From a virus (lineage: Duplodnaviria; Caudoviricetes): a DNA stretch of 26,953 nt. The DNA is taken from positions 1 to 26,953 of the IMG/VR virus record IMGVR_UViG_3300012200_000014; one strand, written 5' to 3'. Positions within the stretch are counted from its first letter, which is position 1. The number at the start of each line of letters is the position of its first letter. Of the stretch, positions 2,783-25,366 are shown in pieces. The notes under the pieces were generated by a model. That model had not been told where the DNA came from and made no database searches. It was given only the letters and a program-made list of their open reading frames with translations. The translations under genes and the position numbers were made by a program.

Positions 2783-3355
2783 ATGCGTTTCGCATCCAGA
2801 TACGGCCGCATGGTCGTGGAGATCCAGCGGCTGATCGCGGAGGAGTACGCGACCGGCGGCACCAAGGTCCTGCAGCAGGCCGTGCTCGCCCGCTTCGAGC
2901 CGGTCGGCCTGCAGCCGTTCGAGCGCGAGCTGGTGCTCACCCGCTGGGGCGGCAAGTTCAACGGCTCCTACCAGGAGATGGACGAGGTCACAATCGTCCC
3001 GCCCGACTACCGGATCGGCGTCTACGACAGCGTCCAGCAGCAGGAGCAGAACCAGTGGCCGGACGAGCTGCGGCTGAAGGTCGAAGAGAAGCTGCTCGCG
3101 CTCGAGAAGACCGAGGACGTCATCGCCCTCCCGAAGACGACGGTCCCGGCCCCCTGGCCGGCCTACGACGGCTACCAGGGCAGCATCCGCCAGCTGCTGA
3201 AGAAGCTCGACGAGGACGGCCACAACCTGCAGGACGTGCTCACCTACGAGCGTGCCTCGCAGAACCGGCAGGCCTTGGTCGACGCGCTCCAGTCGAAGCT
3301 CGGCGGCTTCGAGCTCGAAGAGGAGACGCCGAAGGAGGAAGAGATCGTTGCCTGA
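2783..3355 (+). CDS. Hypothetical head-associated protein
   Basis: 190 aa with an AGGAGG RBS and a small helical C-terminal motif (LTYERASQNRQALVDAL). Confidence 0.75.
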   Translation: MRFASRYGRMVVEIQRLIAEEYATGGTKVLQQAVLARFEPVGLQPFERELVLTRWGGKFNGSYQEMDEVTIVPPDYRIGVYDSVQQQEQNQWPDELRLKVEEKLLALEKTEDVIALPKTTVPAPWPAYDGYQGSIRQLLKKLDEDGHNLQDVLTYERASQNRQALVDALQSKLGGFELEEETPKEEEIVA

Positions 3356-3677
3356 GCGCTGGCGCCGGCCGGCGGTCGTGCTGGACAGCGAACACGTCCA
3401 GCAGGGGCTCTGGCTCCCGGACGGACGGGTGCTCGGCGAGGTGCAGCTAACCCTCGACGAGGAGACGATCGGGCGGATGCGGGCCGGCTACATGTGCGTC
3501 AAGTGCCTGGAGCCGTTCGAGCAGGCCTGGCCTGTCCGCTGCAACGTCTGCGGCGCCCCGATCCGCGACAAGCAGGCCGAGTACTTCGCCAGGGAGTACG
3601 CCGGCGAGATCAGGCTCGGCGGTCCCCCGCTCGAGCTCGACGGCATCCACGAACGTGCAGCAAGAGAGGAGCGGTAA
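3348..3677 (+). CDS. Zinc-ribbon hypothetical protein (109 aa)
   Basis: TTG at 3348 with AAGGAGG upstream, in the frame of ORF 3252..3677. Contains CVKC and CNVC. Confidence 0.7.
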   Translation: MPERWRRPAVVLDSEHVQQGLWLPDGRVLGEVQLTLDEETIGRMRAGYMCVKCLEPFEQAWPVRCNVCGAPIRDKQAEYFAREYAGEIRLGGPPLELDGIHERAAREER

Positions 3678-3878
3678 ATGTCGATCTCCGCGACCGGACA
3701 GCAGGACCCCCGCGACGCGCATGCCCTCGCCTACCAGCCCGGCTACTGGCTGCCGCACGAGCAGGCAGATCCGTACGGGGTGATGGACAGCTTCGTCGAC
3801 CCCACCTACGACCCCTACGGGTTCGAGCTCTGGGCAGCGGATCGTTCCGAGGCGAACAAGGGCCTGCAGCCGAAATGA
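3678..3878 (+). CDS. Small hypothetical protein (66 aa)
   Basis: GAGGAG RBS; abuts both neighbouring genes; high GC3. Confidence 0.65.
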   Translation: MSISATGQQDPRDAHALAYQPGYWLPHEQADPYGVMDSFVDPTYDPYGFELWAADRSEANKGLQPK

Positions 3879-4057
3879 GCACGGTGCGGATGCTCAACTC
3901 GGTCGGCGAGCACGTCGCCGGGCAGCAGTACGAGTTCGAGGACGAGTTGGCCGACCGCTTCATTTTGCTCGGCTACGCCGACGGCCGGCTCTCGCGTGAC
4001 TACAGCGTCGACGAGCGCAACGAGCTCCAGGCCGGCCACCAGGAGGTGAGCGTCTGA
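3875..4057 (+). CDS. Small hypothetical protein (60 aa, MSTVRMLNSVGEH...)
   Basis: ATGA overlap at 3875 and TGATG overlap at 4055-4059; 3' part of ORF 3494..4057. Confidence 0.65.
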   Translation: MSTVRMLNSVGEHVAGQQYEFEDELADRFILLGYADGRLSRDYSVDERNELQAGHQEVSV

Positions 4058-4473
4058 TGGCCTCTGCTCATTACAACCTGGCGTTGCAGGAGTTCTGGAA
4101 GGGCACGCACGGCGACCTGACCTCCGCCGGGGTGACGGTGAAGGTGCGGCTGATGCGCGTCTCCGCGTACACGTTCGCGCAGGCCCACCAGTTCCTCTCC
4201 TCGCTCCCGGCAGCGCTCGTCACCGACGTCACCCTCGGCACGAAGACGGCAAACGGCGCCGGCGCAGACCCTGGCTGCTTCGACGCCGGCGACGCCACCT
4301 TCCTCGCCGTCCCCTCCGGGGCCGCGATCGACTGCCTCGGCGTTTTCAAAGACACGGGCGTCGCGGGCACTAGCCCGCTGCTCTTCTACATCGACGGCTT
4401 CACGGTCACCCCGAACGGCGGCGACATCACGATTCAGTGGCAGAACAGCGCACCCTGGATCGCGAAGCTCTGA
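4057..4473 (+). CDS. Virion structural protein (fibre/decoration type)
   Basis: 138 aa, beta-rich, with an AGGAGG RBS. The pattern (DLT..TVKVRL; FDAGDATF; TPNGGDITIQW) is typical of small phage virion proteins. Confidence 0.7.
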   Translation: MASAHYNLALQEFWKGTHGDLTSAGVTVKVRLMRVSAYTFAQAHQFLSSLPAALVTDVTLGTKTANGAGADPGCFDAGDATFLAVPSGAAIDCLGVFKDTGVAGTSPLLFYIDGFTVTPNGGDITIQWQNSAPWIAKL

Positions 4474-4481
4474 GCTAGGTC

Positions 4482-5111
4482 ATGGCGGACACGAAGATCT
4501 CCGCGCTGACCGCCGCCCTGATACTCGCCGACACCGATGAGCTTGTGCTCGCCGCGAGCGGCGCGAACAAGAAGATCGCCGCCGCGAACCTGCGCGCAGC
4601 CCCGGCGGTGGCGACGATCTCCAATCTCTGGCTGCCGCTCTTCCCCTGCGCCTCGCTCGGCACGCAGGTCTATAACCCCGGCCAGCTGCGGGTTACACGC
4701 ACCGTGCTGGCGGCGGCGATCAAGACGGTGCAGCTGGACATCACCGCGGGCGTCGCGAGCACGTTGCGTGTCTGCGTCTACGCCGACACGGCAGCCGGGC
4801 CGGGGGCGCTGCTCTACCAGACAGCCGACATCTCAGGCTCCGCGATTGCCGCCCCGACCGCCGCGCTCGGGCCGGTCCCCGCAGGTACCTACTGGATCGG
4901 CGTGCAGAACACAGGCGCGTCGGGGGGGCCGACGATCCGTTCTTGCAACGGGGCGAACCCGTTCCTGACCGGCCTCGATCTTCCGGGTGCGAATGCGATC
5001 CCGAACGCCTGGTCGAACGCCGGGCAGGGAACGACGATCGCGAATCCGTTCCCGCTGGCCGGTGTGCTGCGTGCGGGGAACGTCCCCGCGATCTTCCTGC
5101 AGGCGTCCTAG
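4482..5111 (+). CDS. Virion structural / fibre protein
   Basis: 209 aa. The N-terminus MADTKISALTAA resembles short fibre-anchoring motifs and the C-terminal domain is beta-rich. Confidence 0.65.
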   Translation: MADTKISALTAALILADTDELVLAASGANKKIAAANLRAAPAVATISNLWLPLFPCASLGTQVYNPGQLRVTRTVLAAAIKTVQLDITAGVASTLRVCVYADTAAGPGALLYQTADISGSAIAAPTAALGPVPAGTYWIGVQNTGASGGPTIRSCNGANPFLTGLDLPGANAIPNAWSNAGQGTTIANPFPLAGVLRAGNVPAIFLQAS

Positions 5112-13076: not shown

Positions 13077-16000
13077 ATGGCACGCCACGAGACACTGGCG
13101 CATGCGAAGGCCCGCATGCGCAGAGAGGGCTGGTCCGAGGCAGCAATTCGGGGCCAGGCCAACCGCTGGCGCACCCAGCGTCTCGGCGTGCCCAAGCCCG
13201 TTGTCTCCCTTCCTGTCGCGACGGTGCCGCGGCCGACAGTCAAGGTCCCGAGTCCGCACGCGGACACCGGCTTCCGCGCCGTCTCCATTCCGAGGCCGAC
13301 GGGCGACCCGCACGTCCGCAGCGTGCAGCGGCGGCTGAACGCGGCCGGCTACAACGTCGACGTCGACGGCGTGCTGGGCCCGCAGACGAGAGCTGCGATC
13401 AGCCGTCACAACAAGGAACTCCCCGGCCGGCAGGCGGCGGCGAACCAGGCTTTCGCGAACACGGTGCGCACCCAGTACACCGAGCCGGTCCCGAAGGTCG
13501 ACTCGCCGCACCGGAGGAGAATCGCAGCCAGGGGTCTGCCCGTGCCTAGGAGCAGCGGTGGCTCGGCGCTCGGCAAGTACGAGCCGCACGACCCGTACGC
13601 GCTCGGGAACATCCCGGGGCTACGGCCGCGCCGTCAGTTTGCTCCCACGCCCGACCTGCGCACCCCCTTCGACAAGCAGGTCGGGAACATCGTCGGCTCG
13701 ATCATCTCCGACCCACTCGGCGCGCTCGCGTTCGGCAAGGCCGGCGTCCATTTCGTCAAGCACCCGTCGATCGGCGCCGGCACCGCCGCCGCCGCCGCCG
13801 GGCTCGGTGTCGTCCCGGTGCTGCGCGGGCCGCGGGCGGCAGCGGCGATGTTCACCGCACTGCGTGACGGAGCGGCGCTCCGCGAGGCGGCGCAGGCCGG
13901 CGCCAGATCGTTCGGCGAGCGGGGCCCGATCGCAACGGCACGCGAGACGCTGAAGCTGAAGCGGATGAAGGCCGACGTGATGCCGGTGCTAAAGAACGAC
14001 CCGGTCAGGCGGGTGATCTTCCAGGAGATCGACGCCGCCGGTCTCGAGCCTGGGCGCGCCAAGCAGCTGAAGAGCGACCTCGACGCCGCCGCCGCCGAGC
14101 ACGCTGACACGCTCGCCCGCGGGGTCAAGGGTGGGACACTCGCGAACCGGCGGGCGATCCACGCTCCCGCCTACTTCCACGACATGCACTCGACGGCGGC
14201 GAAGCTGCACGGCTCGATCCCCGACTTCATCCACCAGATCTCGAAAGAGGAAGCCGACGCGCATCTGCGGTCCTTCCTCGACCCGAAGAACATCGCCAAA
14301 GGCCACGCTCAGAACCCCGCTCGGGCCTCGACACACCCCGATCTGGGCGCGCTCGTCGCGACGGGGAGGATCACCCCAGAGCAGTGGTGGGCGCGCACCC
14401 AGCACGCCTTCAACTACAACCAGGCGGACGGCCTGAAGGCTGCCTACTGGTACCGCCAGCTCGGGCCGATCTTCTACCACTTCTTCGGCGACGACGCGCC
14501 GGCGATCCTCAGAGGCTTCGCCGTCTCGCAGGCCAACGCCTCCCCCTCCGGAGGCCTGCAGGCGGTGCTCGAGGTCAGAGACCTGCTCCTGCGCGGCCAG
14601 CCGGTCCCGGAGGACAAGATCTCGACGGTCGTCAAGTCGATCGAAGCGGCCTACCAGGGACAGCCGGTGACCGCGGGGATGGCGGCGAAGCTGCACGACT
14701 TCGCCAACAGCCTGGAAGGCAAGTCGACGAGAACCTGGACGGGCGATGACATCCGCGGCGGCGCCCCGACGGCGATCGACATCCACGCCCAGCGCGACCT
14801 GGGCCGGATCGACCCGAAGATCCTCGCCACCCTGCGCGATCGGCACGGCCTTCCCGTCGCGCACCTACAACTCGAGGCCTTGAACCGCGAGCTGAAGCGG
14901 CTGCAGGGGACCGACGTGATCGAGCTCAACAGCAGGACGAAGATCCGCAAGGGCGCCGAGGGGTTCGAGGAGGCCAAGGCGAACGTGCTGCGGAGGCAGC
15001 GGGGGCGGATTAGGTCGTTCAAAAAGGCGAACGGGGATGAGATCAAGGCCGGGCGCAAGTCGGGGCTGAAGCTCGACAACCCCGGCGCGGCAGCGAGCGG
15101 GATCAACTACGACCAGCCGCTGCGCGAGTACGCCGCGATCACCAGGTACCTGAACGACAACAAGGCCTGGGGCAAGACCTGGGGGACGAACGAGTGGACG
15201 CCGGCCGAGGTACAGGCGCTCGGCTGGTCAGGGATCCAGCGCTTCCACGGCGAGGTGCCGGAAGACGCACTGGCTGCGATCGAGCGCAACACCCACCACA
15301 TCTCGCTCGAGGTTCTGAGCGGCGCCAACGACTTCGCCAAGGCGCCCGCAAGCTACCGAGCGGCGCTAGGCCTGACCAAGCGCGAGCAGGCGAACGTGCT
15401 CCGGATCATCGGCGAGGAGAACGGGATCCTGCGCGCCGTCGACTACGGGCCGGGGATCTACCAGAACGTGTTCACGCCGTCGATGAACCTGCAGATCCTC
15501 GGCTCACCGAACCAGGTCGACAGGATTGCGGCGCGGCTCGCCCGCGAGTACCAGCAGTGGGAGGTCTGGGCGACACGGCCCGGTCTGCAGAGCAGCGTCA
15601 AGGGCAGGAAGAGCAAGTTCGCGATCGAGCTCGAGGCGCCGCAGTTCGCGAAGGTCTCGGAGATCAGGAGGTACTGGGCCGACCTGCAGGCGCACGCGAC
15701 CCCGAAGCAGCTCAAGCAGCTGACGGGGGCGACGACCTACAGCTACAAGAACGAGGCCGGCGAGACGGTCTACGGGCTGCGGATCGTCACCGGGCACGCC
15801 TCCGGGAAGGAAGAGAAGATCAAAGACTTCCTGCGCAGGAACTACGGGGAGCTGCTCGAGGGGGTCAACAAACGCAGCGGCTACCATGTCAAGGTCGATC
15901 CCAACAACGTCGAGGTCAGAATCCATGAAGGACAGCCAGCAGGAACCGCAGAAGCCGGAAGGGTCTACGACCTGGGGGGACATGAAGCCCCCGGACCACC

Positions 16001-19000
16001 CGGCGAACCGGCCGTCCATCCATATTCGGCCGAAGCCGCCGGCGCCCTCGGGCCCGCCCGCCCAGCAGTAAGCGCGGCCGTTCCGGGACTCGACGTCCCG
16101 CACCCCGGCGACGCCTTCCCGCTCCGCGACGAGTACGGCAACGTCGTCCCCTCGGCACGCTTCGTCTCCGGCGCGGAAGAACCCTTCACCTTCCCCGCCC
16201 ACTGGACGGACACCGGCGCCGGCCCGGGCCTGGGCGAGGTCTACGACGATGCCCGCAGCTGGCTCGCCGACGTCGCCTGGTCGAACATGGAGCCGGAGCA
16301 GATGCAGGCGCTGCCGGACGCGGTCGTCGCGAACGCGATCGACAAGTACTACGACGGCGGCATGGAGCAGTTCATCAGCGACTCGCTCTACGTCGATCCG
16401 CTCGCCCCCGCCGCCGAGAACATCAAGAACGTCCCGGAGGTCTTCCGGCTCGAACGGCCGCTCTACGACAACGGCTCCACCCTCGCCGACAGGCATCTGA
16501 CGGAGGAGGCGAGAGCCTGGCAGAACAAGCTGCGCGACGAGTTCGGCAACCCCGTCCCGTCGGCGCGCTTCGCCACCGGCGCCGCCGAGATCCCCCCGAC
16601 AGAGATCAACCCGGCCGTGCGGGCGGCGCTCGACGACCCCTACGTGGCGCGAGAGATGAGCATCGGCGGGCTGACCGCCCAGTTCCTGAAGCCGCGCTCC
16701 GGGCTCTCCCGCTTCGGCGTGCACTGGATCGACGAGGCCTCGAAGGCGCTCGACCGCTCGCCGCTCGTCCACTCGCTGCCCGGCGTTCGCCACGTCACCT
16801 CGTCGGAGCGGGTGATGAAGGCGGCGGGTCGCGAGCAGCGAGCTGCCCAGGAGGAGCGGCTTTCGAGGATGGCCGGCGCGATCCGCACAATCGGGAACCT
16901 GAAGGAGGGATCGGCGGAAGACGTCGCGCACTTCTGGTATGCCCAGCTACCGAAGAGCCACCGCAACGCCGAAGGCCTGCAGGCCGTCATGGATCTGCAG
17001 ACCGGCCACCTGAGGGAACTGCTCGACGGCACCATCGACGCCCGCCTCGACGCTCGCGAGACCGAACTCAAGGAGACCGCGAAGCTCGCCGAGACGAAGG
17101 GCGAGGTGATGGAGATCTACGACGAGCTCGGTCGGCTCAACCTCTACCGCCAAGACCTGCCCTTCCAGAAGGAGGATGTCAGCGCCTCGATCGCGGTCAT
17201 GAAAGATCTCGTCGCGAACGCACCCGAGGTCGACGACAAGGTGATCGGCGCGATGCGCAAGCTGGCCGAAGACCGCAAGCGGATCATGGTTGAGGGCGGC
17301 AGGCTCGAGGAGGGACGCGCCGCCGGCCGCGAAGGCCTGCTCGCCCGCCAGCTCGGGCTGGAGGAGGACGGCAGCGAGGTCTACGTCGGGCACCGGCTCG
17401 CCGAGCCCGACCCGCAGGGCGCCTATACGCCACCGTCGGGAGGGACGGGCCGGCCACGCTCGCCGAAGGGCGCCGGCAGCCGCAACCAGCTGATCCTCGC
17501 TCGCAACGGCAGGCTGCGCGCCACCACCCGCGTCAACTACGAGGACTGGAGCTCGAGCCAGGTCTTCCAGCAGGCGATCATCGACCGCACCAACCTCGGC
17601 CAGACCGGGCCGCGCTGGACGGGCGGCGCGGTCCCGGCGGACAGCCTGCTCGTGAACATGAAGGGCGAGGTGATCCCGAAGCACTGGCGCTCGGACGAGC
17701 TGGCGCAGTTCACCGACGACGCCGTCGAGCGGGAGGAGATCCGCAAGAAGGCCGACGACATCGTCAAGGGGTTCATCGCCCAGACCCATGACGAGCAGGT
17801 GGCGATGATCGCGAAGGTCAGGCAGATGTCGATCGAGGCGGGCAAGCCGGTCGGCGACATCCGGGTCGTCAAGCGCGCCCACGTCGACCGCTACTACAAG
17901 CAGTTCCGCCCGCCGGGCGCCCGCGGCGAGGCGCTGAAGACCTACGACCACATCATCGACGGGGTCTCGACCTCGATCATCTTCGCCCGCATCGGCTACA
18001 TCCCGAAGAACGCCGTCCAGAACCTGATCATGGCGGCGCCGCACCAGGGCGTCTTCCTGCCCCAGAACCTGGTGCGCGCAGCGCAGGTCCTGAACGACGC
18101 GCAGTTCAGGGACATGAAGGAGCTCAAGGATCTACTCAAGGGACAGGTCTCCTCGTCGGGGGGGACGGCCGCGATGGGCAAGGAGATGGTCGCGGGCAAG
18201 GTGCACCGGGTCGTGACGGGGACGGTGACGGCGTTCGCGGACGACCCCGGCCGGATCGCCGCCTTCCTGCACGAGGCGGCGAACGAAGGAGTGATCCCGC
18301 GCTACGGCGTCCTGCTCAGCACGAAAGACAAGCGCGCCCTGATCGACTTCCTGACGAACCCGCGCCACGAGAGGCAGCGCTTCGATGTCAGACGGCGGGC
18401 CGTCGAGGCGATGGGCGACTTCACGCGCATGACCCCCTCACAGGCCCGCTGGGCAAGGCGCTACTTCATCATCCCCGGCTGGCTCGTCGCCGGCTCCCGC
18501 TACCCGTTCCACTTCGCCGCCACCCACCCGATCCGCACGGCGCTGATCGCCTACGCGCTCGCCGGCGAACCGGGCGCGCCCAAGGAGCTGCAGTTCAACC
18601 AGCCGGTCACGCAGTACCTGCACGGCGACAAGTACATGATCGGCTTCGACACCCGCTGGGGCAGGCTGCGGGTCGCGTCGCTGAACCCGATCTCGACACC
18701 GGAGGAGTTGGCGCTCGCCGCCGCCGGGTCCTTCAGCGGAAAGAAGAACGCCTACGACTACCAGACGCCGACGATGTTCGACGTCGCGAACCCGCTCGGC
18801 GCAGCGATCCTGAAAGTGGCCCGGGGCGAGGCCAACCTGCGCACCTACAAGGGCTGGGAGAAGGCGGTGATCGCGCCGCTCGTCCCGAACTACTCGCTGA
18901 TCAGAGACCTGATCACTAAGCAAGCGCACTCGCCGCACTACCCCGATGACAACACCTGGTGGCGGCGGCTCGAGCGCGAGCTCGGGATCCTCCCGATACG

Positions 19001-19172
19001 CGTCATCGATCAGCCAGTGAGGGGTGGGACAGCAGGCCCGCTGTACGGCGGCGGCGGATCGAACCTCGCACCTGGCCTCGGCGGCGGCAGCGGCGGGGCT
19101 CCGGGGGTCGGCAGTAGCAGCGGCAGCTTCCCCGGCGGCGGCGGTGGTGGTGGCTCGGCTCCAGGGCTATGA
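13077..19172 (+). CDS. Large multidomain virion/ejection (polyvalent-type) protein, 2031 aa
   Basis: Has a PG_binding_1-like motif (VRSVQRRLNAAGYNVDVDGVLGPQTRAAI), a central HhH-glycosylase-like motif set, a helical C-terminal region and a Gly-rich tail. Confidence 0.75.
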   Translation: MARHETLAHAKARMRREGWSEAAIRGQANRWRTQRLGVPKPVVSLPVATVPRPTVKVPSPHADTGFRAVSIPRPTGDPHVRSVQRRLNAAGYNVDVDGVLGPQTRAAISRHNKELPGRQAAANQAFANTVRTQYTEPVPKVDSPHRRRIAARGLPVPRSSGGSALGKYEPHDPYALGNIPGLRPRRQFAPTPDLRTPFDKQVGNIVGSIISDPLGALAFGKAGVHFVKHPSIGAGTAAAAAGLGVVPVLRGPRAAAAMFTALRDGAALREAAQAGARSFGERGPIATARETLKLKRMKADVMPVLKNDPVRRVIFQEIDAAGLEPGRAKQLKSDLDAAAAEHADTLARGVKGGTLANRRAIHAPAYFHDMHSTAAKLHGSIPDFIHQISKEEADAHLRSFLDPKNIAKGHAQNPARASTHPDLGALVATGRITPEQWWARTQHAFNYNQADGLKAAYWYRQLGPIFYHFFGDDAPAILRGFAVSQANASPSGGLQAVLEVRDLLLRGQPVPEDKISTVVKSIEAAYQGQPVTAGMAAKLHDFANSLEGKSTRTWTGDDIRGGAPTAIDIHAQRDLGRIDPKILATLRDRHGLPVAHLQLEALNRELKRLQGTDVIELNSRTKIRKGAEGFEEAKANVLRRQRGRIRSFKKANGDEIKAGRKSGLKLDNPGAAASGINYDQPLREYAAITRYLNDNKAWGKTWGTNEWTPAEVQALGWSGIQRFHGEVPEDALAAIERNTHHISLEVLSGANDFAKAPASYRAALGLTKREQANVLRIIGEENGILRAVDYGPGIYQNVFTPSMNLQILGSPNQVDRIAARLAREYQQWEVWATRPGLQSSVKGRKSKFAIELEAPQFAKVSEIRRYWADLQAHATPKQLKQLTGATTYSYKNEAGETVYGLRIVTGHASGKEEKIKDFLRRNYGELLEGVNKRSGYHVKVDPNNVEVRIHEGQPAGTAEAGRVYDLGGHEAPGPPGEPAVHPYSAEAAGALGPARPAVSAAVPGLDVPHPGDAFPLRDEYGNVVPSARFVSGAEEPFTFPAHWTDTGAGPGLGEVYDDARSWLADVAWSNMEPEQMQALPDAVVANAIDKYYDGGMEQFISDSLYVDPLAPAAENIKNVPEVFRLERPLYDNGSTLADRHLTEEARAWQNKLRDEFGNPVPSARFATGAAEIPPTEINPAVRAALDDPYVAREMSIGGLTAQFLKPRSGLSRFGVHWIDEASKALDRSPLVHSLPGVRHVTSSERVMKAAGREQRAAQEERLSRMAGAIRTIGNLKEGSAEDVAHFWYAQLPKSHRNAEGLQAVMDLQTGHLRELLDGTIDARLDARETELKETAKLAETKGEVMEIYDELGRLNLYRQDLPFQKEDVSASIAVMKDLVANAPEVDDKVIGAMRKLAEDRKRIMVEGGRLEEGRAAGREGLLARQLGLEEDGSEVYVGHRLAEPDPQGAYTPPSGGTGRPRSPKGAGSRNQLILARNGRLRATTRVNYEDWSSSQVFQQAIIDRTNLGQTGPRWTGGAVPADSLLVNMKGEVIPKHWRSDELAQFTDDAVEREEIRKKADDIVKGFIAQTHDEQVAMIAKVRQMSIEAGKPVGDIRVVKRAHVDRYYKQFRPPGARGEALKTYDHIIDGVSTSIIFARIGYIPKNAVQNLIMAAPHQGVFLPQNLVRAAQVLNDAQFRDMKELKDLLKGQVSSSGGTAAMGKEMVAGKVHRVVTGTVTAFADDPGRIAAFLHEAANEGVIPRYGVLLSTKDKRALIDFLTNPRHERQRFDVRRRAVEAMGDFTRMTPSQARWARRYFIIPGWLVAGSRYPFHFAATHPIRTALIAYALAGEPGAPKELQFNQPVTQYLHGDKYMIGFDTRWGRLRVASLNPISTPEELALAAAGSFSGKKNAYDYQTPTMFDVANPLGAAILKVARGEANLRTYKGWEKAVIAPLVPNYSLIRDLITKQAHSPHYPDDNTWWRRLERELGILPIRVIDQPVRGGTAGPLYGGGGSNLAPGLGGGSGGAPGVGSSSGSFPGGGGGGGSAPGL
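15925..16071 (+). CDS. Candidate nested (+1 frame) 48-aa gene inside the 2031-aa gene
   Basis: GAGG at 15912-15915 precedes the ATG. By hand count 43/48 codons end in G/C in this frame versus 27/48 in the host frame. Confidence 0.5.
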   Translation: MKDSQQEPQKPEGSTTWGDMKPPDHPANRPSIHIRPKPPAPSGPPAQQ

Positions 19173-20293
19173 GAACTCCCTACCTCCGGGCCGCGAAGCA
19201 GGCGGCGAAACGCAACGGGATTCCGATCCCAACCTTCCTCAAGCTGGTCAACCAGGAGTCCGGCTGGCAGGCTGGCATCGTTTCGTCAGCAGGGGCGCAG
19301 GGGCTGACGCAGCTGATGCCCGGGACTGCCCGTTCGCTCGGCGTCACGGATGCCTTCGACCCAGTGCAGAACCTCGACGCCGGCGCCCGCTACCTGCGCC
19401 AGCAGCTCGACAGGTTCGGCTCGATGCGGCTCGCGCTCGCCGCCTACAATGCCGGCCCCGGCAACGTCGAGAACGGCGACTGGGAACGGATCCCGGAAAC
19501 GAAGCGCTACGTCCAGTCGATCCTCGGCTCGCCGCCGGGCAAGACGATCTCACCCTCCGGTGGTATCACCCGCGAGCATGCACAGCCCACGCCGAGCCCG
19601 CGCAGAACCCGCGCAGCCCTGGCGGCGGTCCCGGTCAGCGCAGCGCTCTCATCGACGCCGGTCGATCCGCTCTGGGGCACCGACCTGCTCTCGAAGACGG
19701 CCTACGAGAACCTGGGCAAGATCGCTCAGGGCTGGAGCCCGACCTCGACGATGGACGCCCTCGTCCAGGCCTCCCAGGTGCCCGTCGTCCCGCCCTCAGC
19801 GCTCGCGCCGGCGGCGCCGGGCCGGTCGCTGCTGCCGGCACCGCCGCTACCGCCGGTTGTCTCACAGCTCCCAGCGCGAGCGCCCACGCAGCCGCCTCGA
19901 GCTGCCGGCCCCAAGATGGGCAAGATCGTCATCGCCCCCGGCGCTGACCGGCCCGGTGTGCCGACCCAGAAGGCGGTGCTCGACTTCGCCGCCCGGATCG
20001 CAGAGCTCTACGGCAGGCCGCTGACGATCGGGACAGGCTCGAACCACAATCAGTTCGTCGTCGGCACGCACCGCCAGTCGGCGCACTGGACAGGCCGCGC
20101 CGCCGACATCCCGATGGCCGGCGACGCGCTGACGAAGCTCGGCCAGGACGCCCTGATTGCCGCCGGCATGGGCCCCGCCGAGGCGCGCCAGCAGAGAGGC
20201 GGCGTCTACAACATCGGCGACTACCAGATTCTCTTCAACACCTACGTGGGCGGTGATCACTACAACCATCTGCACATCGGTCTGAGAGGCTAA
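19169..20293 (+). CDS. Virion-associated peptidoglycan hydrolase: SLT lytic transglycosylase + Pro-rich linker + M15-like Zn peptidase
   Basis: SLT motifs NQESG, GAQGLTQLMPGTA and ALAAYNAGPG. The C-terminus has SAHWTGRAAD and HYNHLH. Confidence 0.85.
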   Translation: MRTPYLRAAKQAAKRNGIPIPTFLKLVNQESGWQAGIVSSAGAQGLTQLMPGTARSLGVTDAFDPVQNLDAGARYLRQQLDRFGSMRLALAAYNAGPGNVENGDWERIPETKRYVQSILGSPPGKTISPSGGITREHAQPTPSPRRTRAALAAVPVSAALSSTPVDPLWGTDLLSKTAYENLGKIAQGWSPTSTMDALVQASQVPVVPPSALAPAAPGRSLLPAPPLPPVVSQLPARAPTQPPRAAGPKMGKIVIAPGADRPGVPTQKAVLDFAARIAELYGRPLTIGTGSNHNQFVVGTHRQSAHWTGRAADIPMAGDALTKLGQDALIAAGMGPAEARQQRGGVYNIGDYQILFNTYVGGDHYNHLHIGLRG

Positions 20294-20852: not shown

Positions 20853-22094
20853 TTACCGTGCCCCGAACCTTGCCTGGCGAGCCTTGGTGGCGGTGCTCTT
20901 CTCGAGGTGCCCGTAGATCGTGCGGGCGACCTCCGGGTCGTGGCCGGCGGCTTCGCCGATCATCGCCCAGTCGACGAGCTCGCCGGCGTCGGTGTACGAC
21001 TTGATCGCCGAGGAGACGTAGGTGTGGCGGAAAAAGTGCGCGGTCACGCTGCGTCCGATTCCGGCTCCTTCGACGGCCTCCTTGATCTTTTTGGAGATGA
21101 AACTCGCCTGCCGCGGCGTCTGCTTCGACGTCGGAAAGAGCAGCCCGCCGCGGTGGAGCCAGCCGGCCTCGATTCCCGCGTCGATATATGACTGCAAAAC
21201 CTTGGCCCCGAATTCGGAGACAGAGACGGTGCGCACTTTGTCGCCGATCGTCGAGTCCTCACCCTTCAGCGCCTTGAACCAGGTCCTGTCGTCGCTGACG
21301 TCGCGCTTGCGCCGCAGCTGGCGCTCGACACGCAGCTCGCCGTAGAAGCCGACGTGCTCGTCGCCGTGCGGGCGCACCATCGGGTTCCAATCCTTCAGCT
21401 GCAGCGCGAGCATCTCGGACAGCCTCAGCCCGAGCAGCGGCAGCAGCAGCACGATCACCCGCATCTGCGCACCGACGATGTCGCCGTTGATGTTGTCGCG
21501 GCTGAGCACGGCGGCGACGTCCGCGATCCGGTCGACCTCAGCCATGTCGACGACCAGCCCCTGCTCCGACTGGCTGCGCTTCTTCCGCTGCGGGATGTTG
21601 ATCTCCGAGATCCCCTGGACGGGGTTCGTGGTGCAGTAGCTCTGCTCCCCTTGCGTGCACCATTTGAAGAAGGCGAGCATCGCGCTGTAGACGTTGGCGC
21701 AGCTGTTCTCCGTCAGCCCCCGTCGCTTCGCGTTCTTCAGCACCTGGGTGATCTGACGCGGCTGCACCTTGTCGACGCGGAGGTGCCCGATCGCCGGCAG
21801 CACGTCCATGCGGAAGCAGCTGGCGTGGCGGTCAATCGTGTCGACGCCGGCGCGGTGCTCGGCGCCCTTGAACTCCTCCCATGCCTTGCGCACGGTGATC
21901 TTCGAGTCGGCGGCGAGCGGCTGGCCATAGTCCTCGTGGTAGAGCCGCTGTGCTTCGCCGAGCTCGGTCGTCCCGAACGAGCGCTTGACCGGCCGCTCGT
22001 CGCGCCAGCCGTAGAAGTACCAGACGCCGCTGTCGATGCGCTGCCGCAGACCAGGGAAACCCTGTGGGTCTACAGCGGGATGAAACTCTGCCAT
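20853..22094 (-). CDS. int: Tyrosine integrase (413 aa)
   Basis: AAGGAGG RBS before ATG 22094. Catalytic set LGLRLSE (R), ALKG (K), HFFRHTY (HxxR), AAGH and IYGH (Y). Also has an arm-binding-like N-terminus and a SAM-like core-binding region. Confidence 0.93.
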   Translation of the reverse strand: MAEFHPAVDPQGFPGLRQRIDSGVWYFYGWRDERPVKRSFGTTELGEAQRLYHEDYGQPLAADSKITVRKAWEEFKGAEHRAGVDTIDRHASCFRMDVLPAIGHLRVDKVQPRQITQVLKNAKRRGLTENSCANVYSAMLAFFKWCTQGEQSYCTTNPVQGISEINIPQRKKRSQSEQGLVVDMAEVDRIADVAAVLSRDNINGDIVGAQMRVIVLLLPLLGLRLSEMLALQLKDWNPMVRPHGDEHVGFYGELRVERQLRRKRDVSDDRTWFKALKGEDSTIGDKVRTVSVSEFGAKVLQSYIDAGIEAGWLHRGGLLFPTSKQTPRQASFISKKIKEAVEGAGIGRSVTAHFFRHTYVSSAIKSYTDAGELVDWAMIGEAAGHDPEVARTIYGHLEKSTATKARQARFGAR

Positions 22095-22188
22095 GCTGAC
22101 CGTCCTCCTTGCAGTGAGATGCACTGGTTGTGCATAGCCAGTCTAGCCACCTCGCTCTGACCCATTCGGGTGGTTCTGCTCGATATGA

Positions 22189-22214
22189 GGGAGCCGGGCC
22201 GAGACCCGGCTCCC
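22189..22214 (-). terminator. Perfect 10-bp hairpin at the 3' end of the array
   Basis: GGGAGCCGGG-6 nt-CCCGGCTCCC. It has no U-tract, so it may be a processing or stabilising stem. Confidence 0.5.
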
Positions 22215-22424
22215 CGTCGTTCCCAGCCTTCCAGCCTGCTCCCCTCTGGCCCATCCAACCGCTTCTTCCACCCAGTTCGCCAGCCTGCTCCCCTCGGCGC
22301 CACCCAGCTCGCCTACCACGCGTCCTGCCGGCCGACCACTCCCCCAGCCACGCAATCCAGCAACCACCCTCGCACCCGCCAACCCATCCTCCAGACCTCC
22401 CACCTCTCCTACTCACCCCGAGAT

Positions 22425-22475
22425 CGATGTCTCTGGGCGGCTCGACCTTTCGACTCGAGCCACCCGCAGACATCG
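22425..22475 (-). repeat. Array hairpin repeat 2
   Basis: CGATGTCTGCGGGTGGCTCGA...TCGAGCCGCCCAGAGACATCG; homologous to 22580-22632. Confidence 0.85.
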
Positions 22476-22579
22476 CCAACCAGCCTCCAACCCGCTCACC
22501 CATCCTCCAGACCTCCTACCTCGCCTAGCCTGCGTCCTCCCGACTTCCCATCCCACAATCCAGCTCGCCTTCCTCCAGT

Positions 22580-22632
22580 CAACGTCTCTGGGCAGCTCAG
22601 CCCATCTCGGACTGAGCCACCCACAAACGTCG
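22580..22632 (-). repeat. Array hairpin repeat 1
   Basis: CGACGTTTGTGGGTGGCTCAGTCC-GAGAT-GGGCTGAGCTGCCCAGAGACGTTG; several mismatches resolve as G-U pairs only on the minus strand. Confidence 0.85.
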
Positions 22633-22768
22633 AACTCCTTCCGTCCTGTTGTCCATCCAGATCGCCGCTCAGCCGTCCTCCTGTCCGACCACCGGCCCAG
22701 CCAGCCTCCCGCCCCGCCGTGCTCCCTTGCTCCCGGCCTGGCCTCACTGCAGCCCTACCATCTTCCCT

Positions 22769-23416: not shown

Positions 23417-23612
23417 TTGACCGTCCTCCCTTGTTTTTGGGTGTGTCTGACTCTTCCCTTGATAGGTGACCGGCCCAGCGAGCGCGACGGCGACGCCGGG
23501 GTGCTCTCTCGGCCACATGTCTGAGGTTCCCAGCCTTCCCACTGCTTGCGCTCGCCGTCCCCCACTCGGCTCGGGGGCTCGAGGTGCGCGGTGCTGCCCA
23601 GCCTGGATAGAT

Positions 23613-23667
23613 AAAAAAACGGGGCTGGCGCGGTCCGCTGTCGGCCTGCGAGTCCTGAGCCCCACCG
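23613..23667 (-). terminator. Probable intrinsic terminator between the early genes and the RAMP-like gene
   Basis: Minus strand GGGGCT...CGCAGGCCG-ACAG-CGGACCGCG..AGCCCCG followed by T7. Confidence 0.55.
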
Positions 23668-23751
23668 CTGCCGGTACCACCTATGCTTACGGTGCCCCCG
23701 AACGGTCGAGACTGGTGCTCAGCTCTCATGTGGCATGTATCGGGGGCTTCT

Positions 23752-23982
23752 CTATTGCATCGCCTCCTTGCGCATCGGCGCGAGCTTCTCGCGGCGCCAG
23801 CGCAGGGCAAAGCGGCGCGGGTCCTCGCCGCGTTCGAGCGCGAGCTCGTGCAGCGCCGTATTCAGCAGTGCTTCTTCGCGCTCGAGCGTGGCCCGGAGCG
23901 CGACGATCCCGCGCTTCAGCTTCGCGTGCTCGTGCGCGAGCTGCTGCAGTTCTTCCAGCCGAAAGGTGTGCAGACGTTTCAC
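23752..23982 (-). CDS. Hypothetical coiled-coil protein (76 aa)
   Basis: GTGA overlap with the upstream gene; high GC3. Confidence 0.65.
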   Translation of the reverse strand: MKRLHTFRLEELQQLAHEHAKLKRGIVALRATLEREEALLNTALHELALERGEDPRRFALRWRREKLAPMRKEAMQ

Positions 23983-24430: not shown

Positions 24431-24909
24431 AAGGGAATCTCCTCGTCCTCGACGCTGCGCTCGAGCTGGCGCTGCACGTCGCGGTTGAATTTCTCGTTGC
24501 CCTTGCCGTCGTCCTCGAAGTTCGACTCGATCACGACGCGCTGGCGCAGACGGGTGATCTGCAGGCGCGTGTCGCGGAAGCCGTCGACGCCGAGGAAGCA
24601 GGCGAGCTGCGGCGACTTCTCGCCGCCCTCGTAGATGCGCAACGCCGTCGTCCTCATCGTCTGCCCGCCGGGCCCCTCGATGCTGCCGTACCTGTTGCGC
24701 TCCGGCGCGGCCGGGTTGAAGTAGCCGAAGGTGACACGCGACTCGGTCGGGACCTCGAGCTCGAAGTCGCCGCGCCCCTTGTCGTAGACGCGGATCGTGC
24801 GCGTGCCGCCGGGATCGCCGCCCTCGGAGACGTCGGTCACGACTTCGGTCTCGACGGTGTCCTGGTCCTGCTTGGCCATCTGAACGCTGTGCTGGTCCTG
24901 CTTAGTCAT
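24427..24909 (-). CDS. Hypothetical protein with an SSB-like acidic C-terminal tip (EDEEIPF)
   Basis: 160 aa, beta-rich, with a GAGG RBS; ends in EDEEIPF. Confidence 0.7.
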   Translation of the reverse strand: MTKQDQHSVQMAKQDQDTVETEVVTDVSEGGDPGGTRTIRVYDKGRGDFELEVPTESRVTFGYFNPAAPERNRYGSIEGPGGQTMRTTALRIYEGGEKSPQLACFLGVDGFRDTRLQITRLRQRVVIESNFEDDGKGNEKFNRDVQRQLERSVEDEEIPF

Positions 24910-25366
24910 CTGATCGTCCTCTCTCTTTCTGTTCGAGCAGCTTCGCGACCGCCACCGAGTGCTCCATGTCGCCGTCGGTTGCGACGAACAGCCGCGCCAG
25001 GCGACGGGGGTCGATCTTGGTCGCGAGCGTCTGCTCGATCTCTTCCAGCTGACGGTCGTTCCAGACGTGCATCTCGACGCCGGCGTCGCGCAGCGATTCG
25101 ATCCAGTCGACCTGCGTCGCCGTCGGCTTGTTCGGCGCCAGCTTCAGCTCGGCGCAGAGCAGCCGTTCGCGCACGCAGACCATGTCCGGGAAGCCGGCCG
25201 CGTCCTTGTCGGGGATCGCGACCGCCTGATCGCCGCGGCGCACGAACTTGATCGTGTTGCCGAAGTGCGCGACCTTCCAGTCGTGGAAGAGGGCGCACTC
25301 GATGAACCAACGGGTGAACTCGCGCTCGGTCCGGAAGGGCCGCTCCTTCTTCTTCTTCGCGGCCAT
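24902..25366 (-). CDS. VRR-NUC (PD-(D/E)xK) nuclease, 154 aa
   Basis: TEREF...AGFPDMVCV...AELK...PTATQVDWIESL...VW; ATG at 25366 in a TGATG overlap. Confidence 0.85.
   Translation of the reverse strand: MAAKKKKERPFRTEREFTRWFIECALFHDWKVAHFGNTIKFVRRGDQAVAIPDKDAAGFPDMVCVRERLLCAELKLAPNKPTATQVDWIESLRDAGVEMHVWNDRQLEEIEQTLATKIDPRRLARLFVATDGDMEHSVAVAKLLEQKERGRSDD

Follow-up and report, generated by a model that had tools for sequence, protein, structure and literature searches.

VIPR systems consist of a Vipr protein and a vrRNA; seven types have been described, including the SUSP1 and P. fulva type II systems (10.64898/2026.04.26.720920, 10.64898/2026.04.26.720927). In the accessible text of these papers, all types are built on pentanucleotides, with the motifs YNNGG, NNNGG, YNNNG and NNNNG (10.64898/2026.04.26.720920), and in the published structure the three bases of the repeat are held by two neighboring subunits. 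In SUSP1 Vipr, the two Gs are read by the essential residues D177 and R138, with W178 stacking on G2, and the Y pocket consists of E71, M72 and R179 (10.64898/2026.04.26.720927). The SUSP1 system is reported to silence the excision recombinase of a satellite, and an array caller that allowed periods of 4–8 in E. coli satellites learned a five-base motif (accessible text of 10.64898/2026.10.15.759431). VIPR clusters in the COMPASS paper, canonical or not, likewise have period 5 as far as its accessible text goes, which also mentions 66 off-band clusters, not all of them itemized there (10.64898/2026.10.21.760802). We found no four-base VIPR in the text of this literature, of which the figures, data files S1–S4, supplements and off-band clusters could contain one.

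Here we describe a four-base GG-NN array beside a Vipr-family gene, which we consider likely to encode a guide RNA for silencing the excisionase-like gene of a rival element. The locus resembles VIPR in that a minimal, phage-borne RAMP gene adjoins an array of G scaffold and NN with structured tails, in its one-base wobble skip (here by profile decoding and not by direct target matches), in the G-reading Asp and thumb Arg, and in having regulators of mobile elements as predicted targets. Unlike published VIPR, to the extent of the accessible text, it has units of four bases instead of five, replaced Y-pocket and stacking residues, tracts of 25–38 in-phase units (seemingly joining several targets) instead of 9–16, simple long hairpins instead of a pseudoknot tail, and a conserved upstream element of ~290 nt. 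As in the available account of SUSP1 silencing (10.64898/2026.10.15.759431), guides to excision functions are read at codon positions 1-2, but guide decoding here predicts genes of the HTH_17 excisionase-like class and box II of tyrosine integrases as targets. The non-canonical VIPR clusters with GAC/NN, CAC/NN and other repeats (10.64898/2026.10.21.760802) also place a divergent scaffold beside a Vipr-like fold; according to the accessible text, however, they alter the trinucleotide letters at period 5, whereas the scaffold here is one base shorter. With the Cas7/Csm3 RAMPs of Class 1 CRISPR the protein shares the RAMP fold, but at 9–14% identity, and pairing here would be gapped rather than near-contiguous; no cas operon was recognized among the scanned ORFs. 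Since a Vipr-family protein and a VIPR-like code occur together with no five-base repeat, we class the locus as a variant outside published types I–VII.

The four-base array and the adjacent Vipr-family gene

The window, that is, the whole stretch of DNA analyzed (26,953 nucleotides, or 27 kb), is a soil-phage record of ~58% completeness in which an ORF scan found capsid, adaptor, tail-collar and tyrosine integrase genes. On its minus strand, small ORFs are followed in order by a 76-aa ORF, a non-coding stretch of ~330 nt, a 215-aa ORF, a G-rich array, a hairpin and the integrase (Table 1). The array (22766–22225, minus strand, ~550 nt) lies directly 3′ of the vipr-like gene and repeats GG-NN at a 4-nt period, in in-phase tracts of 33, 25 and 38 units plus nine register-shifted units. 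Autocorrelation of GG had maxima at lags 4, 8, 12, 16 and 20, and the in-phase/out-of-phase ratio at period 4 was 2.38, where 200 base shuffles reached at most 1.14; at period 5 it was 1.02. G was found at unit position 1 in 76 of the 96 window units and at position 2 in the same number, positions 3 and 4 being mixed; 60/96 units start with GG. After a unit ending in G, the first scaffold G was kept in 8 of 18 cases vs. 65 of 75 otherwise (p 4e-4), a bias that we also observed across the clade of related loci described below (76/130 vs. 278/371, p 5e-4). The substitute was mostly A. Replacing the first G in this way may shorten runs of G or prevent ambiguity in the register. The array is identical in contigs from four soil DNA runs, which are possibly not independent of source sample. 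Tandem Repeats Finder does not detect it, Rfam gave no above-chance match for the array or the upstream element, and neither a sigma-70 promoter nor an intrinsic terminator was found.

Table 1. Positions of the array, its gene and neighboring features in the window
Feature	Position	Strand	Remarks
vipr-like gene, 215 aa, RAMP fold and C-terminal G-loop	22769..23416	-	without Pfam or PHROG match
Tract 1: 33 four-base units, beginning directly after the vipr stop	22635..22766	-	
Hairpin 1, predicted guide tail	22579..22633	-	-42.9 kcal/mol, z -9.1
Tract 2: 25 units, target class without recognized match	22474..22573	-	
Hairpin 2, related to hairpin 1	22422..22477	-	-37.6 kcal/mol, z -6.3
Tract 3, 5′ part: 17 units in register with the 21-unit stretch; variant of tract 2 guide	22350..22417	-	
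Tract 3, 3′ part: the 21-unit stretch of GG-NN, predicted HTH_17/excisionase-like guide	22266..22349	-	
Nine extra units following a one-base register shift	22225..22260	-	
Hairpin 3, closing the array	22188..22215	-	-26.7 kcal/mol, z -3.4
Conserved non-coding element 5′ of vipr, probably structured	23451..23739	-	also in L001, L006, L009
76-aa ORF, candidate accessory gene	23752..23982	-	similar-looking ORFs in L001, L006, L007 (by eye)
Tyrosine integrase, directly 3′ of the array	20853..22094	-	context

The 215-aa protein has 18 homologs at 57–85% identity, plus more distant ones; no clade member was present in 401 genomes, a sample of one phylum. Comparison of its profile with that of the canonical Vipr sister family gave a probability of 99.9 (E 6e-36), and a member of the sister family matched the SUSP1 gene at E 6e-5; the link of the window's protein to SUSP1 thus runs through the sister family. 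A tblastn search with the window's protein alone found no match among annotated phages, as was the case for the integrase, and a PDB sequence search found none either. Its structure model (pLDDT 76) matched Csm3 in Foldseek (E 2.8e-4), and a VIA fold search returned CRISPR-Cas chains in all of its top 30 rows (Z 7.5, rmsd 4.6, 149 aligned); no Vipr structure was among the matches of the fold searches. An Atlas comparison gave 0.96–0.97 for viral clusters and 0.76 for a RAMP cluster, which we take as a lead only. Judged by sequence comparison and modeling, the protein is a stand-alone RAMP homolog of the Vipr family with a predicted RRM core, G-loop and thumb.

Decoding of the predicted guide tracts

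An earlier note on this DNA had proposed that 21 consecutive in-phase units hold an NN series which, read as codon positions 1-2, spells an HTH_17/Xis-like segment. We recovered exactly this series on the minus strand at 22349–22266, as the final two bases of 21 in-phase 4-mers that belong to a longer in-phase tract of 38 units (22417–22266). Fifteen of the 21 units start with GG and the rest with AG (two), GA, GC, CC and AA; the best 21-unit stretch elsewhere in the window has a GG count of 8. For scoring we built our own HTH_17 profile, using 22 unrelated genes of other genomes that match PF12728 and leaving out two seed-matched genes and four near-duplicates. The decoded series fits this profile at 38.8 bits, ungapped over all 21 units (profile columns 11–31), in agreement with the proposed family. 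Shuffled units had a mean of 8.5 and a maximum of 21.0 bits, and 0 of 5,000 reached 38.8 bits. Held-out real HTH_17 genes (n = 4) scored 42–57 bits across the 32-column profile, and the antisense reading stayed at background (8.4 bits).

The note had further equated the skipped base with the codon wobble position, and this was supported too: scores were 9.8 bits at skip 0, 38.8–38.9 at skip 1, and 11.0 at both skip 2 and skip 3, and when all frames and strands were scored the signal appeared in the wobble frame at skip 1 alone. Positions 1-2, 2-3 and 4-1 of the unit, tried as alternative codes, yielded 8.2, 9.2 and 16.7 bits; when NN plus the next G was read as a codon, a stop fell at the Tyr position. 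The wobble-skip code described in the note is the already published VIPR code and is not new. What is new, and absent from the note, is the four-base period together with the adjacent remodeled Vipr protein.

Because the family was chosen after the sequence had been seen, one might suspect that the excisionase decode is a chance pick from all families, and that the array is either the remains of a gene or low-complexity DNA rich in G. G-run-preserving shuffles of the array reached 15/21 GG in 56 of 2,000 trials, so this stretch on its own is no more than moderately unusual, and it is the array as a whole that serves as evidence. We nevertheless regard the suspicion as extremely improbable: the extrapolated shuffle P is ~2e-10, or ~3e-4 after about a million choices of family, strand and segment, the array contains a second guide of the HTH_17 class, and period 4 is also present in six other loci. 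Stops are present in all three minus-strand frames across the array, and a 4-nt period is not what a gene remnant would show.

The second guide is in tract 1, where 15 units decode to HTH_17 columns 8–22 (22.2 bits, 0/5,000 shuffles). The nine shifted units (22225..22260) gave a weak HTH_17 signal (9.3 bits, 92/5,000 shuffles) and have 5/9 NN in common with the end of the 21-unit stretch. Guides from two related loci, L006 and L007, matched a profile of tyrosine-integrase box II with scores of 18.6 and 19.3 bits, respectively (0/1,000 shuffles each), both on the sense strand, in the wobble frame and at skip 1 only; that profile holds 12 sequences selected by motif, and the matches are modest once 48 tract-by-model tests are counted. 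Across all tracts, scanned with 60 shuffles, profile decoding gave a skip-one signal in 4/24, and 20/24 fit neither profile. The last 15 units of tract 2 and the first 15 of tract 3 (22474–22533 and 22358–22417) are alike in 11/15 NN, and one of the differences is CG vs. AG, both of them Arg prefixes, suggesting two guide variants for one, probably coding, target.

Four and five bases across the Vipr family

We counted periods in seven clade loci at 38–73% identity to the window's protein (the window, L001, L004–L007 and L009), dropping L003, a duplicate of the window, and L008, which has 2 bases downstream. Period 4 was present right after the gene in 7/7 loci with downstream DNA (ratios 1.58–2.38, shuffle maxima 1.13–1.34); period-5 ratios were 0.89–1.25, and the published five-base repeat feature is absent. 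A cruder GG count gave a tie in L004 (9 vs. 9) and preferred period 5 in L006 (10 vs. 9). The sister set, comprising the best 80 of 560 matches and including some near-duplicates, had at least 10/16 GG at period 5 in 77/80 loci and at period 4 in 0/80, and 75/80 passed the ratio test for period 5. Three sister vipr loci, L021, L022 and L047, showed no clear array of period 5 in the DNA examined, which is incomplete for L047. In a FastTree phylogeny of 106 sequences rooted on SUSP1, which took in one in four of the period-5 loci, the period-4 loci grouped in a single clade of 35 members (support 0.92) that contains none of the period-5 loci. Searches for five-base repeats overlook this branch of the Vipr family.

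Residue comparisons were anchored on the SUSP1 gene, in which 12/13 checked residues were found at the positions of the structure paper; residue 175 is Val in the record and Thr in the paper. The equivalents of D177 and R138 are retained in 7/7 clade loci. E71, R179 and the aromatic residue at 178 were found in 0/7, vs. 75, 79 and 75 (as Phe) of the 80 sister loci, and within the clade M72 is changed to Glu/Gln and H17 to Asn/Ser. The alignment register near the clade's one-residue G-loop insertion is uncertain, and because of this insertion the missing Arg may be displaced and not lost; the window's protein has an Arg one position later. Among 28 near homologs of undefined array type, two kept the Arg. 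Seven proteins (P0034, P0036, P0037, P0039, P0049, P0066 and P0074) have intermediate G-loops that combine the insertion with a retained Arg, and from their array periods one could tell in which order the change from five to four bases took place. With seven loci in one clade, the scaffold and residue changes count as one evolutionary event.

Loss of the Y pocket would allow GGY to be shortened to a scaffold of GG, giving 4 RNA bases per 3 DNA bases vs. 5 per 3; four-base guides, if true, would be 20% shorter per target base. A natural four-base clade with an unchanged one-base skip uncouples the length of the scaffold from that of the skip, and the clade comparison names residues that likely set scaffold length. 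It is conceivable, although we propose it with considerable reserve, that these loci form a separate VIPR type with a lost Y pocket, a GG scaffold, multi-target tracts against excisionases and integrases, and the 290-nt upstream RNA as a third component; the multi-target guides and the third RNA are speculative.

Targets, strand and accessory elements

By analogy with SUSP1, the G-rich strand would be transcribed together with vipr, and Vipr subunits would assemble on the guide, one per four-base unit; GG would flip into the protein, where the G-loop Asp and the thumb Arg would hold it. Base pairing through NN, with the wobble base skipped, would be to the template strand of the rival's excisionase or integrase gene, and guide binding would block transcription of that gene and so its element's excision, by silencing and not by cutting. 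All four recognizable guides have the sense of the coding strand; the partner of the G-rich RNA would accordingly be the template strand of the DNA, not the mRNA. A C-rich RNA pairing with excisionase mRNA seems to us very unlikely. SUSP1 VIPR does pair with ssRNA in vitro (accessible text of 10.64898/2026.04.26.720927), and the transcribed strand here is a prediction; but vipr and the G-rich strand run in the same direction in 7/7 clade loci, the protein retains the Asp and Arg that read G, and published guides, in the text available, are the G-rich strand.

A natural near-match to the predicted target, which the earlier note had offered as a check, was not obtained: the best agreement was 13/21 NN among 81 seed matches and 120 HTH_17 proteins, below the published 80%. 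The 81 matches to one exact 16-base seed (5 in the viral and 76 in the GTDB collections) were mostly chance. Among them, the best three HTH_17 genes agreed at 13, 12 and 11 of 21, the first of these being xis-like, and three ORFs resembling regulators of a different type agreed at 12/21; the 120 HTH_17 proteins compared with the guide likewise reached 13/21 at best. The seed of the L006 guide had 11 matches, with no integrase among them. When the 24 tracts were searched against 11 related loci and the window, nothing was found at skip 0, 1 or 3 save the seed-selected locus, and skip 2 returned the arrays themselves.

The lack of a close natural target in the searches made, together with the GG start in only 60/96 units and the absence from the protein of several SUSP1 contact residues, would also suit a real guide store that is now degenerate or inactive, or a family-wide approximate guide that binds no single target well. 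We consider this improbable. The gene is intact and conserved at 57–85% identity, the register is maintained across 38 units, the scaffold departures are non-random in both the window and the clade, and canonical arrays are likewise degenerate.

The earlier note's statement that the window holds no target gene stands, in a record ~58% complete: there is no HTH_17 gene, and the best self-match is 9/21. The incompleteness means that the phage's own xis could be missing, and the array lies directly upstream of the phage integrase, where L007 has an excisionase-like ORF. The same four-base VIPR might then control the phage's own excisionase or regulator, and hence lysogeny. We think this rather improbable as well, given the poor self-match and the absence of a skip-1 match between any guide and the record that carries it or a related one, including G001 (96% complete) and G002 (89%); the accessible text on published systems also reports no self-targets (10.64898/2026.04.26.720920). 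A guide against a rival's gene is the reading that we prefer. In L007 and, judged by eye, in L009, the array is likewise followed by an integrase. In L007, the excisionase-like ORF (2908–3318, weak PHROG match) and an integrase (3379–4602) come directly after the array; in the window the integrase stands alone.

Predicted tail hairpins had z scores of -2.4 to -9.1 in 12/13 folded segments; the L004 segment does not fold. Hairpins 1 and 2 of the window are mutually related and separate the tracts, and hairpin 3 ends the array. A segment of L009 (5760–5812) is nearly identical to window hairpin 1 (22579–22633); the two proteins are 38% identical. The upstream element has counterparts with invariant blocks in L001 (4635–4910), L006 (4666–4923) and L009 (4636–4894), and two-sided changes were seen in 16/48 predicted pairs among these four sequences. 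By itself it folds no better than shuffles (z 0.1), and no counterpart was detected in L004, L005 or L007, nor in loci of the sister family. A small ORF lies 5′ of vipr in 4/7 clade loci, as compared by eye, and had no family match.

We observed no nuclease gene adjacent to the vipr-like gene and a weak HNH match (E 0.009) ~2.3 kb upstream of it. Elsewhere in the window, a virion-like protein of 2,031 aa (13077–19172), which has a peptidoglycan-binding domain at its N terminus, is followed by an SLT and peptidase M15-like lysin (19169–20293), and a 30-nt tandem duplication (24854–24913) lies at the start of an ORF.
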